Source: Escherichia coli (GTDB lineage Bacteria; Pseudomonadota; Gammaproteobacteria; Enterobacterales; Enterobacteriaceae). Taken from it: a stretch of 64,000 nucleotides of DNA. Each line of letters starts with the position of its first letter. The first letter of the stretch is position 1. The stretch lies in NCBI RefSeq assembly GCF_003334305.1, contig NZ_QOWS01000002.1; one strand, written 5' to 3'. Under the pieces are notes generated by a model. The model was given only the letters and a program-made list of their open reading frames with translations, searched no databases and was not told where the DNA came from. Below are positions 8,471 to 64,000 of this stretch, piece by piece. Position numbers and translations under genes: made by a program.

Positions 8471-8482
8471 TAATCTCTATGC

Positions 8483-8509
8483 TCCGGCTGAAGGGATGTT
8501 TTTGCCGGA
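8483..8509 (-). promoter_or_regulatory. pyrC leader hairpin able to sequester the Shine-Dalgarno (pyrimidine-responsive start-site regulation)
   Basis: Reverse strand UCCGGC...GCCGGA inverted repeat, whose 3' arm overlaps the GGAG Shine-Dalgarno just upstream of the pyrC ATG. Confidence 0.55.
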
Positions 8510-8521
8510 CACAAAGGATAA

Positions 8522-39040: not shown

Positions 39041-39062
39041 GTTGTCATTTTCCACCCTTATA

Positions 39063-39088
39063 AAAGGTCCGCTTGCGGGCCTTTTTTC
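39063..39088 (+). terminator. fabF rho-independent terminator
   Basis: AAAGGTCCGC-tt-GCGGGCCTTTTTT hairpin plus T-run. Confidence 0.6.
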
Positions 39089-39159
39089 TTAGCTTTTATT
39101 CCGACTTGTTCCGTAGTGAACATGCTGCCACACTAACAATTCTCTGATAAGGAGCCGGT

Positions 39160-39969
39160 ATGTTCTTAATTAACGGTTATAAGCAGGAATCGCTGGCAGT
39201 AAGCGATCGGGCAACGCAGTTTGGTGATGGTTGTTTTACCACCGCCAGAGTTATCGACGGTAAAGTCAGTTTGTTATCGGCGCATATCCAGCGACTACAG
39301 GATGCTTGTCAGCGGTTGATGATTTCCTGTGACTTCTGGCCACAGCTTGAACAAGAGATGAAAACGCTGGCAGCAGAACAGCAAAATGGTGTACTGAAAG
39401 TCGTGATCAGTCGCGGTAGTGGCGGGCGAGGGTACAGCACATTGAACAGTGGACCGGCAACGCGGATTCTCTCCGTTACGGCTTATCCTGCACATTACGA
39501 CCGTTTGCGTAACGAGGGGATGACGTTGGCGCTAAGCCCGGTGCGGCTGGGGCGCAATCCTCATCTTGCAGGTATTAAACATCTCAATCGTCTTGAGCAA
39601 GTATTGATTCGCTCTCATCTTGAGCAGACAAACGCTGATGAGGCGCTGGTCCTTGACAGCGAAGGGTGGGTTACGGAATGCTGTGCGGCTAATTTGTTCT
39701 GGCGGAAGGGCAACGTAGTTTATACGCCGCGACTGGATCAGGCAGGTGTTAACGGCATTATGCGACAATTCTGTATCCGTTTGCTGGCACAATCCTCTTA
39801 TCAGCTTGTCGAAGTGCAAGCTTCTCTGGAAGAGGCGTTGCAGGCAGATGAGATGGTTATTTGTAATGCGTTAATGCCAGTGATGCCCGTACGTGCCTGT
39901 GGCGATGTCTCCTTTTCGTCAGCAACGTTATATGAATATTTAGCCCCACTTTGTGAGCGCCCGAATTAG
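39160..39969 (+). CDS. pabC: Aminodeoxychorismate lyase
   Basis: 269 aa; [28 protein letters not shown], class IV PLP enzyme. Confidence 0.94.
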
Positions 39970-39971
39970 TC

Positions 39972-40994
39972 ATGAAAAAAGTGTTATTGATTATCTTGTT
40001 ATTGCTGGTGGTACTGGGTATCGCCGCTGGTGTGGGCGTCTGGAAGGTTCGCCATCTTGCCGACAGCAAATTGCTTATCAAAGAAGAGACGATATTTACC
40101 CTGAAGCCAGGGACCGGACGTCTGGCGCTCGGTGAACAGCTTTATGCCGATAAGATCATCAATCGTCCACGGGTTTTTCAATGGCTGCTGCGTATCGAAC
40201 CGGATCTTTCTCACTTTAAAGCCGGGACTTACCGCTTTACACCGCAGATGACCGTGCGCGAGATGCTGAAGTTGCTGGAAAGCGGTAAAGAAGCACAGTT
40301 CCCTCTGCGACTGGTAGAAGGGATGCGTCTGAGCGATTACCTCAAGCAATTGCGTGAGGCCCCGTATATCAAGCATACGCTGAGCGACGATAAGTACGCC
40401 ACCGTAGCGCAGGCACTTGAACTGGAAAACCCGGAGTGGATTGAAGGTTGGTTCTGGCCAGACACCTGGATGTATACCGCCAATACCACCGATGTCGCGT
40501 TACTCAAGCGAGCGCACAAGAAAATGGTGAAAGCGGTCGATAGCGCCTGGGAAGGGCGTGCGGACGGTCTGCCTTATAAAGATAAAAATCAGCTGGTGAC
40601 GATGGCATCAATTATCGAAAAAGAAACCGCCGTTGCCAGTGAACGCGATCAGGTTGCCTCGGTATTTATCAACCGTTTACGCATTGGTATGCGCCTGCAG
40701 ACCGACCCAACCGTGATTTACGGGATGGGAGAGCGTTATAATGGCAAACTTTCTCGTGCAGACCTGGAAACGCCGACAGCGTATAACACCTATACCATTA
40801 CCGGTTTGCCGCCGGGTGCGATAGCTACGCCGGGGGCGGATTCGCTGAAGGCTGCTGCGCATCCGGCAAAAACGCCGTATCTCTATTTTGTGGCCGATGG
40901 TAAAGGTGGTCACACGTTTAATACCAATCTTGCCAGCCATAACAAGTCTGTGCAGGATTATCTGAAAGTGCTTAAGGAAAAAAATGCGCAGTAA
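39972..40994 (+). CDS. mltG: Endolytic murein transglycosylase MltG (YceG)
   Basis: 340 aa; N-terminal TM helix; starts 2 nt after the pabC stop. Confidence 0.93.
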
Positions 40995-41625
40995 GTATAT
41001 CGTCATTGAGGGGCTGGAAGGCGCAGGCAAAACTACCGCGCGTAATGTGGTGGTTGAGACGCTTGAGCAACTGGGTATCCGCGACATGGTTTTCACTCGG
41101 GAACCTGGCGGTACGCAACTTGCCGAAAAGTTAAGAAGCCTGGTGCTGGATATCAAATCGGTAGGCGATGAAGTCATTACCGATAAAGCCGAAGTTCTGA
41201 TGTTTTATGCCGCGCGCGTTCAACTGGTAGAAACGGTCATCAAACCAGCTCTGGCTAACGGCACCTGGGTGATTGGCGATCGCCACGATCTCTCCACTCA
41301 GGCGTATCAGGGCGGAGGACGTGGTATTGACCAACATATGCTGGCAACACTGCGTGATGCTGTTCTCGGGGATTTTCGCCCCGACTTAACGCTCTATCTC
41401 GATGTTACCCCGGAAGTTGGCTTAAAACGCGCGCGTGCGCGCGGCGAGCTGGATCGTATTGAGCAAGAGTCTTTCGATTTCTTTAATCGCACCCGCGCCC
41501 GCTATCTGGAACTGGCTGCACAAGATAAAAGTATTCATACCATTGATGCCACCCAGCCGCTGGAGGCCGTGATGGATGCAATCCGCACTACCGTGACCCA
41601 CTGGGTTAAGGAGTTGGACGCATGA
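40984..41625 (+). CDS. tmk: Thymidylate kinase
   Basis: 213 aa; [24 protein letters not shown]-loop; overlaps the mltG 3' end by 11 nt. Confidence 0.96.
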
Positions 41626-42626
41626 GATGGTATCCATGGTTACGACCTGATTTCGAAAAACTGGTAGCCAGCTATCAGGCCGGAAGAGGTCACCATGCGC
41701 TACTCATTCAGGCGTTACCGGGCATGGGCGATGATGCTTTAATCTACGCCCTGAGCCGTTATTTACTCTGCCAACAACCGCAGGGCCACAAAAGTTGCGG
41801 TCACTGTCGTGGATGTCAGTTGATGCAGGCTGGCACGCATCCCGATTACTACACCCTGGCTCCCGAAAAAGGGAAAAATATGCTGGGCATTGATGCGGTA
41901 CGTGAGGTCACCGAAAAGCTGAATGAGCACGCACGCCTAGGTGGTGCGAAAGTTGTCTGGGTAACCGATGCTGCCTTACTAACCGACGCCGCGGCTAACG
42001 CATTGCTGAAAACGCTTGAAGAGCCACCAGCAGAAACCTGGTTTTTCCTGGCTACCCGCGAGCCTGAACGTTTACTGGCAACATTACGTAGTCGTTGTCG
42101 GTTACATTACCTTGCGCCGCCGCCGGAACAGTACGCCGTGACCTGGCTTTCACGCGAAGTGACAATGTCACAGGATGCATTACTTGCCGCATTGCGCTTA
42201 AGCGCCGGTTCGCCTGGCGCGGCACTGGCGTTGTTTCAGGGAGATAACTGGCAGGCTCGTGAAACATTGTGTCAGGCGTTGGCATATAGCGTGCCATCGG
42301 GCGACTGGTATTCGCTGCTAGCGGCCCTTAATCATGAACAAGCTCCGGCGCGTTTACACTGGCTGGCAACGTTGCTGATGGATGCGCTAAAACGCCATCA
42401 TGGTGCTGCGCAGGTGACCAATGTTGATGTGCCGGGCCTGGTCGCCGAACTGGCAAACCATCTTTCTCCCTCGCGCCTGCAGGCTATACTGGGGGATGTT
42501 TGCCACATTCGTGAACAGTTAATGTCTGTTACAGGCATCAACCGCGAGCTTCTCATCACCGATCTTTTACTGCGTATTGAGCATTACCTGCAACCGGGCG
42601 TTGTGCTACCGGTTCCTCATCTTTAA
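41622..42626 (+). CDS. holB: DNA polymerase III delta-prime subunit
   Basis: 334 aa; [28 protein letters not shown]; ATGA overlap with the tmk stop. Confidence 0.95.
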
Positions 42627-42636
42627 GAGAGACATC

Positions 42637-43434
42637 ATGTTTTTAGTCGACTCACACTGCCATCTCGATGGTCTGGATTATGAATCTTTGCATAAGGACG
42701 TGGATGACGTTCTGGCGAAAGCCGCCGCACGCGATGTGAAATTTTGTCTGGCAGTCGCCACAACGTTACCGGGTTATTTACACATGCGGGATCTGGTAGG
42801 CGAACGTGACAACGTCGTATTTTCTTGTGGCGTGCATCCACTCAACCAGAATGATCCCTACGATGTAGAAGATTTACGCCGTCTGGCGGCAGAAGAGGGT
42901 GTGGTTGCGCTGGGTGAAACTGGGCTGGATTATTATTACACGCCGGAAACTAAAGTACGTCAGCAAGAGTCCTTCATCCATCATATCCAGATTGGTCGTG
43001 AACTGAACAAGCCGGTTATCGTCCATACCCGTGACGCCCGCGCCGATACGCTGGCAATTCTGCGCGAAGAAAAAGTGACGGATTGCGGTGGCGTACTACA
43101 CTGTTTTACAGAGGACAGAGAAACGGCGGGTAAATTACTGGATCTCGGATTTTACATCTCCTTTTCCGGCATTGTGACCTTCCGTAATGCGGAGCAACTG
43201 CGCGATGCTGCGCGTTATGTCCCCCTGGATCGATTACTGGTGGAAACTGACTCACCTTACCTTGCGCCGGTACCGCATCGAGGAAAAGAGAATCAACCTG
43301 CGATGGTTCGTGACGTTGCAGAATACATGGCTGTGTTGAAAGGTGTTGCCGTTGAAGAACTGGCGCAGGTAACCACCGATAACTTCGCCCGTCTGTTTCA
43401 CATCGACGCTTCCCGCCTTCAATCCATCCGTTGA
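42637..43434 (+). CDS. ycfH: TatD-family metal-dependent nuclease YcfH
   Basis: ORF trimmed to [18 protein letters not shown]... (265 aa), TatD HxH motif. Confidence 0.92.
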
Positions 43435-43608
43435 ATGAGTTTTTTTAAAGCTCGTAATTAATGGCTAAAACGAGTAAAGTTCACCGCCGAAAATTGGGCG
43501 GTGAATAACCGCGTTTGAAATATTGTGACATATGTTTTGTCAAAATGTGCAACTTCTCCAATGATCTGAAGTTGAAACGTGATAGCCGTCAAACAAATTG
43601 GCACTGAA

Positions 43609-49119: not shown

Positions 49120-49139
<20 letters not shown>
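48498..49139 (+). CDS. lpoB: Outer-membrane lipoprotein activator of PBP1B (LpoB)
   Basis: [20 protein letters not shown]... lipobox followed by a Pro-rich linker (213 aa). Confidence 0.92.

Positions 49140-61192: not shown

Positions 61193-64000
<2,808 letters not shown>

Follow-up and report, generated by a model that had tools for sequence, protein, structure and literature searches.

The closest described counterpart of the locus analyzed here is the pabC-mltG(yceG)-tmk-holB-ycfH operon of Escherichia coli K-12 (b1096–b1100), of which yceG-tmk-holB-ycfH is listed as DOOR operon 3220 (grouping given in PMC6544118 Table S3). In this report, we examine these five genes in a 64,000-nt stretch of E. 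coli DNA (contig NZ_QOWS01000002.1 of assembly GCF_003334305.1; hereafter, the window), where they are found on the plus strand as a run of overlapping or nearly abutting reading frames. The block is the known K-12-type operon, with the same genes, order, strand, annotated ends, and junctions, and no difference was found. At a probability of about 0.75, we take it to be an ordinary compact operon with mixed translation, in which tmk, holB, and ycfH would be translated from their own Shine–Dalgarno sequences with partial coupling to the preceding cistron, while mltG would be translated by reinitiation.

Such packing is well described in bacteria. Overlapping genes account for up to a third of the genes in prokaryotes, and the −4 overlap (NTGA) is by far the most common, followed by −1 and −8 (PMC12548453). 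Among the spatially coupled pairs of open reading frames (ORFs) described by Huber et al. 2019 (PMC6728339) and Brown and Wade 2025 (PMC12548453), tmk/holB corresponds to the canonical ATGA case, and lolC/lolD (−8), flgI/flgJ (−1), and lolD/lolE (−1) elsewhere in the window represent the other common classes. The mltG/tmk (−11) and lpoB/thiK (−20) overlaps differ from these in being longer, where the efficiency of coupling is reportedly lower (PMC12548453). The block also differs in that its downstream genes keep their own Shine–Dalgarno sequences and that its products share no known complex. A second comparison is the dcw (mra) cluster of E. coli, which is likewise a long operon of essential genes that overlap or abut in series. 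The ORF_distance values for ftsL, murE, murF, mraY, murG, ddlB, and ftsA are −3, −13, −3, −6, −3, −7, and −3, respectively, and the translation efficiency of neighboring dcw genes differs several-fold (PMC5318159 supplementary file 1). The genes and functions of that cluster are different, and the comparison serves only to show how routine such blocks are. In Pseudomonas putida and P. aeruginosa the fabF-pabC-mltG-tmk-holB neighborhood is conserved. P. putida KT2440 differs in that a 60-gene island splits tmk, a phage-type deoxynucleoside monophosphate kinase takes its place beside holB, and the overlap motif is another one. A "predicted translational coupling architecture" of tmk-holB was assumed for P. 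putida and rebuilt as TGATG (PMC10653934; 10.1101/2023.11.22.568328).

The window is chromosomal E. coli DNA, collinear over its entire length with strain H15. Using megablast with positions 39100–43500, 100% identity was found to several RefSeq E. coli chromosomes, and the pabC-ycfH stretch was found as a single copy in 5425 of 5426 complete E. coli genomes. The ends of the RefSeq features on a 100% identical chromosome coincide exactly with the window ORFs of all five genes. The first cistron, pabC (39160–39969), encodes aminodeoxychorismate lyase, and mltG (39972–40994) encodes an endolytic murein transglycosylase with an N-terminal membrane helix. The essential genes tmk (40984–41625) and holB (41622–42626) encode deoxythymidine monophosphate kinase and the δ′ subunit of DNA polymerase III, respectively, and the last cistron, ycfH (42637–43434), encodes a metal-dependent hydrolase of the TatD family. 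Residues 1–213 of Tmk, 1–334 of δ′ (HolB), and 72–340 of MltG match the constructs of PDB entries 4TMK, 1A5T, and 2R1F, respectively, the last of these including the C-terminus at residue 340. In distant loci, PF01026 (TatD_DNase) is present in the counterpart of ycfH. Five of the 5425 matching records are labeled as plasmids, and a single complete genome gave no match despite the essential nature of tmk and holB; both are probably due to mislabeled replicons or assembly problems.

The four junctions of the block were read directly. At pabC/mltG (39967–39974), the pabC TAG (39967–39969) is separated by the two nucleotides TC from the mltG ATG at 39972 (+2). At mltG/tmk (40974–40994, ATGCGCAGTAA), the tmk ATG at 40984 precedes the mltG TAA at 40992–40994 (−11). 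At tmk/holB (41608–41625), the holB ATG at 41622 and the tmk TGA at 41623–41625 share the ATGA at 41622–41625 (−4), and at holB/ycfH (42624–42639), the holB TAA (42624–42626) is followed by 10 nt and the ycfH ATG at 42637 (+10). These same four spacings had been described in an earlier, sequence-only reading of the window, and they agree with both the letters and the RefSeq gene ends. The overlaps that it listed for flgI/flgJ (1 nt), lpoB/thiK (20 nt), and lolC/lolD (8 nt) are likewise present in the RefSeq annotation. The 1-nt overlap of lolD/lolE at 62981 was absent from that list. The lpoB/thiK overlap (49120–49139) is the longest in the window, in a range where coupling is reportedly weak.

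The overlaps are real and ordinary; the packing is typical of bacterial operons and was already known. The window has 50 pairs of neighboring genes that run in the same direction; 6 of them overlap, and the spacing is at most 10 nt in 15 pairs and at most 15 nt in 21. An equally tight run, hinT-ycfL-lpoB-thiK-nagZ (+2, +13, −20, and +10), is found in the same window. The tightness of the block is no greater than what operon membership already predicts. The values of +2, −11, −4, and +10 all fall in the range of spacings at which coupling was measured in E. coli (review PMC12548453). The pabC/mltG and tmk/holB junctions are within the efficient range of about −4 to +3 nt, and the mltG/tmk and holB/ycfH junctions are in the range where coupling is reduced yet measurable. 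Partial translational coupling within the block is plausible from these distances.

The initiation signals were assessed from the energy of the duplex with the anti-Shine–Dalgarno sequence over the 22 nt ahead of each start, for which the window background is −2.7 ± 2.3 kcal/mol. The Shine–Dalgarno sequence of pabC is a strong AAGGAG (39149–39154, −8.5 kcal/mol). That of tmk is AAGGA (40974–40978, −6.1 kcal/mol) followed by a run of A at 40978–40984, that of holB is AAGGAG (41608–41613, −8.7 kcal/mol) followed by an 8-nt spacer, and that of ycfH is GAGAGA (42627–42632, −5.4 kcal/mol) within the 10-nt spacer. Those of tmk and holB are thus embedded in the final codons of the preceding gene. No recognizable Shine–Dalgarno sequence precedes mltG (−1.9 kcal/mol). 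The missing ribosome-binding site, which is typical of strict coupling and not required for it, is therefore found at mltG and not at tmk, holB, or ycfH.

For comparison, one genome per species was scanned, and the best 80 of 472 matches were kept, all of them Enterobacteriaceae with Tmk proteins 84–98% identical. The junctions were measured after mapping the five proteins on each locus, and the counts are of related, nonindependent sequences. Odd junction values at two loci are assembly artifacts (L047, with N bases, and L066, with apparent indels). In this family, tmk is preceded by AAGGAAAAAA in 69 of 75 loci. A GGAG is found ahead of holB in 72 of 77, though the codon ahead of the Glu codon varies (Gln, Lys, Ala, Glu, or Arg), and T(G/A)AGAGAGA precedes ycfH in 59 loci. 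Over the last 18 nt ahead of the downstream start, the third-codon-position entropy of the upstream gene was about half that found further upstream (0.56 versus 1.15 for mltG and 0.69 versus 1.46 for tmk). For mltG, no Shine–Dalgarno sequence was found in the Enterobacteriaceae consensus either. Since tmk, holB, and ycfH have Shine–Dalgarno sequences of their own, de novo initiation by ribosomes is possible at each of the three, and we propose that it occurs there. Ribosomes that finish the upstream gene would probably contribute by keeping these sites open or by reinitiating, which would give the partial coupling of tmk, holB, and ycfH. Because mltG has no Shine–Dalgarno sequence and its start codon follows the pabC stop codon at a distance of 2 nt, it is the best candidate for termination–reinitiation, and its translation would most likely depend on the ribosomes terminating at pabC.

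The spacings themselves are nearly constant within the family: mltG/tmk is −11 in 75 of 79 loci, tmk/holB is −4 in 76 of 79, and holB/ycfH is +10 in 66 of 78, with most of the others at 8 to 53. The pabC/mltG spacing in 78 relatives is +2 (42 loci), −4 (24 loci), or +1 (7 loci), and the mltG start is held between −4 and +8 nt from the pabC stop codon in nearly all loci. In Atlantibacter (L077 and L080; 3440–3520), the mltG TAA is lost, the mltG/tmk overlap is 23 nt, and tmk/holB is joined as TAATG (−1); overlaps are labile even inside the Enterobacteriaceae. In Enterobacteriaceae bacterium RIT691, a 1757-bp insertion (L019:5144-6900) splits holB from ycfH, and the holB/ycfH junction is therefore breakable.

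A wider sample was drawn from Tmk representatives at 50% identity, for which eight encoding contigs were obtained (Tmk 41–58% identical); two of these (L082 and L088) were too short to inform. The order (fab genes)-[pabC]-[YceG]-tmk-holB-[TatD] recurs in these distant relatives. Their tmk/holB spacings are −10, −4, −1, −31, −4, −23, and +3, the YceG/tmk spacings are −4, −4, and +6, and the holB/tatD spacings are −7, +18, and −22. Beyond the family, the conserved trait is tight packing together with gene order, and the particular length of an overlap is not conserved. We take the overlaps to be by-products of compaction, in which a start codon and its Shine–Dalgarno sequence would come to lie within the tail of the upstream gene and the position of the upstream stop codon would drift.

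The signals around the block and the published transcript data also fit a single operon. At the upstream edge, a hairpin resembling an intrinsic terminator (39062–39085) with a U-run follows fabF (39062–39091, plus strand; −13.3 kcal/mol, z −2.5). At the downstream edge, a 10-bp hairpin, TTCACCGCCG...GGGCGGTGAA (43479–43506, plus strand), is found 45 nt past the ycfH stop codon and has no U-run. The fold of the surrounding 94 nt (43432–43525) has an energy of −30.4 kcal/mol (z −4.7), with none of 200 shuffles equally stable, and the hairpin may serve as a terminator, a stabilizer, or a protein site. Inside the block, no credible terminator was found on the plus strand, where there is only a weak 5-bp stem at 42026 that is no better than shuffles. 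The absence of an internal terminator and the hairpins at both borders are the features expected of an operon. The SMRT-Cappable-seq reads of acpP-fabF run on into pabC and mltG (PMC6131387), and because of this published read-through we call the post-fabF terminator leaky. The supplements of the SMRT-Cappable-seq study make no mention of these genes. Published messenger RNA (mRNA) abundances are 2337 for fabF, 120 for tmk, and 103 for ycfH (PMC5318159). Intragenic promoters of the "tmk-holB operon" were derived from Cappable-seq data in the preprint on a 57-codon genome, and recoding them hurt fitness (PMC11195188). The five genes would therefore be co-transcribed at a low level, both from a start upstream of pabC and by read-through of the acpP-fabF terminator, and at least one promoter within the upstream coding sequence would add tmk-holB transcripts and so boost two essential genes.

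Of the other explanations, the one that survives best is fully independent initiation, in which the overlaps are neutral outcomes of compaction and deletion bias and every cistron, mltG included, recruits free ribosomes. The individual Shine–Dalgarno sequences of tmk, holB, and ycfH and the lability of overlap lengths between lineages are consistent with it, as is the mltG start region, which is AU-rich and unstructured (z +0.5). The abundance of −4 overlaps has been ascribed to the ease with which they evolve (review PMC12548453), and translation efficiency in operons reportedly follows ORF-wide mRNA structure genome-wide (PMC5318159). We nevertheless regard this explanation as unlikely. An mltG gene that has no Shine–Dalgarno sequence and whose start is kept near the pabC stop codon is the pattern expected if reinitiation matters, and reporter studies in E. 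coli generally see some coupling at these spacings (PMC12548453).

At the other extreme is obligatory coupling, in which the same ribosomes would translate pabC, mltG, tmk, holB, and ycfH in turn by termination and reinitiation and would tie together the protein outputs. In its favor are spacings that all fall inside the measured range, −11 and −4 overlaps that are almost invariant in the 79 Enterobacteriaceae loci, tight junctions that persist in distant relatives, and the bare start of mltG. Set against this are the conserved Shine–Dalgarno sequences in three of the four downstream genes and the loss of the exact overlap outside the Enterobacteriaceae. Transcripts from the internal promoter, moreover, cannot give mltG translation from its start (PMC11195188).

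Recoded genomes provide further, indirect evidence. A repair oligonucleotide in the supplement of PMC11195188 carries a constitutive promoter between the mltG stop codon and the native tmk GAAAGTGCTTAAGGAAAAAA-ATG, and on mapping this oligonucleotide we found that the recoded mltG tail is physically apart from tmk. Since the promoter lies between a separated mltG stop codon and tmk, tmk is started without mltG translation on those transcripts. The recoded strains with the promoter inserted ahead of tmk grew faster (PMC11195188), not slower as obligatory coupling would have it. At tmk/holB, codon 2 of holB (41625–41627) is AGA, and its first base doubles as the last base of the tmk stop codon; because of the ATGA overlap, this base must be A. 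The change of this codon from AGA to CGU destroys the tmk stop codon, extends Tmk by 14 residues, and is apparently deleterious (10.1101/069385). Inserting a 3-nt stop codon ahead of the holB ATG changed the tmk/holB overlap and left the strain viable (10.1101/069385), so that an altered overlap is tolerated. In most Enterobacteriaceae, codon 2 of holB is AAA (Lys); the rare AGA (Arg) is used by E. coli, E. albertii, and a small number of others (alignment columns 69–71).

The protein levels also differ. The copies per cell determined by mass spectrometry are 71 for YceG, 133 for Tmk, 36 for HolB, and 125 for YcfH (PMC6544118 Table S3), a spread of 3.7-fold in which HolB is the lowest despite the ATGA overlap and the strongest Shine–Dalgarno sequence. 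Given these copy numbers, the products do not show the fixed, often equimolar, ratio that is a trait of coupled pairs, and they are not known to form a single complex, the class of products for which tight coupling is typically seen (PMC10666635). The translation efficiencies of tmk and ycfH are 0.92 and 1.31, respectively (PMC5318159). Taken together, these points make obligatory coupling improbable.

MltG is an inner-membrane lytic transglycosylase, Tmk is a soluble kinase, δ′ is a clamp-loader subunit, and YcfH is a hydrolase of the TatD family, and to our knowledge they share no common complex. The sequence-only reading had suggested translational coupling of cell-wall, nucleotide, and replication functions. 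Of this, the spacings compatible with coupling stand, and no sign was found that coupling is obligatory or sets the ratios of the proteins. The functional link rests only on co-transcription. Independent promoters and ribosome-binding sites for each downstream gene had been named as the observation that would speak against coupling, and for tmk and holB this is partly the case, as both have their own Shine–Dalgarno sequence and a published intragenic promoter.

A further mechanism would be coupling by RNA unfolding, in which the last ~45 nt of tmk would fold into a hairpin that hides the Shine–Dalgarno sequence and AUG of holB and is opened only by ribosomes that finish tmk. In the minimum-free-energy fold of the E. 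coli tmk/holB junction (−40.8 kcal/mol, z −2.0, 6 of 200 shuffles as stable), the holB Shine–Dalgarno region is indeed paired with upstream tmk. The z-score is modest, however, and RNAalifold gave no consensus pair at this junction in the 79 Enterobacteriaceae sequences, so that a conserved RNA structure at tmk/holB was rejected. The other three junctions have no excess structure over shuffles. We consider this mechanism very improbable. The least credible proposal is a tuned relay, in which the near-invariant −11 mltG/tmk overlap (AAGGA, six A residues, and ATG) together with the +2 pabC/mltG junction devoid of a Shine–Dalgarno sequence would make the synthesis of the essential Tmk and δ′ report in part on translation of pabC, a folate gene, and mltG, a cell-wall gene; if true, it would be a translational link of envelope growth to DNA-precursor or replication capacity beyond shared transcription.

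The mltG/tmk junction was also considered as a site of programmed frameshifting. A run of seven A residues is found at 40978–40984, and relative to mltG the reading frame of tmk is +1. A fusion of this kind would place the cytoplasmic Tmk behind the periplasmic domain of MltG, which is topologically implausible, and no stimulatory structure was found at the A7 run (z −0.6); on these two points, we judged such frameshifting improbable. Two long "Tmk" representatives (P0002 and P0003) that might have been MltG-Tmk fusions are in fact chimeras, one of a PanB N-terminus with Tmk and one of Tmk with a MurA-like C-terminus, and are most likely artifacts of assembly or gene calling.

The ordinary compact operon with mixed translation is thus the explanation that we prefer, and several points weigh against it. 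We infer the share of coupled versus de novo initiation for each gene, and we found in the literature no direct measurement of how far the translation of mltG, tmk, holB, or ycfH depends on the preceding cistron. A scan for sigma-70 consensus promoters gave no plus-strand site within the block, and the published Cappable-seq data are the sole source for the internal tmk-holB promoter. The promoter insertions restored growth only in part, with a doubling time of 83 min versus 35 min for the parent (PMC11195188). That the −11 and −4 overlaps hardly vary within the Enterobacteriaceae could be due to selection for coupling or, equally, to short divergence combined with double coding constraint.

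As a discovery, the block carries little weight, since nothing in the locus, in its overlaps, or in what they probably mean departs from textbook operon architecture. It is of practical relevance to genome recoding and engineering, where recoding projects have already reported the hazard (10.1101/069385; PMC11195188). Because one base belongs both to the holB AGA codon and to the stop codon of tmk, and because the mltG tail holds the ribosome-binding site of tmk, synonymous edits can harm two essential genes together.

Several minor observations were made on related loci. The insertion in RIT691 carries two genes on the opposite strand. One resembles GT2 polyprenyl-phosphate glycosyltransferases (NCBIfam matches below the equivalog cutoffs), and the other encodes a hydrophobic protein of 145 amino acids with no family match, which by its appearance we take to be a GtrA-like candidate only. 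Two reduced genomes, L085 (CP132901.1, 599 kb) and L087 (CP012849.1, 529 kb), which are probably those of insect symbionts, keep fab-pabC-tmk-holB-tatD and have no mltG. Their pabC/tmk gaps are 55 and 122 nt, and their tmk/holB overlaps, as called, are 31 and 23 nt, respectively. In a metagenomic relative (L084:2080-3504), the gene with the YceG domain was called at 474 amino acids versus 340 in E. coli and lies directly 3′ of fabF with no separate pabC; the length could be due to a long start call or to a fused or extended N-terminus. A contig titled Chryseobacterium sp. 18061 (L040, CACSKA010000011.1) has a pabC-mltG-tmk-holB block of the Enterobacteriaceae type, with Tmk 87% identical to that of E. 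coli, and the assembly is probably contaminated or mislabeled. An Rfam scan gave no family inside the block. Elsewhere in the window, matches at the gathering score were obtained for the RNase E 5′ untranslated region element (rne5; 30252–30588, minus strand), the SraB small RNA (32449–32617, plus strand), and the PyrC leader (8471–8520, minus strand), all of which are expected here.

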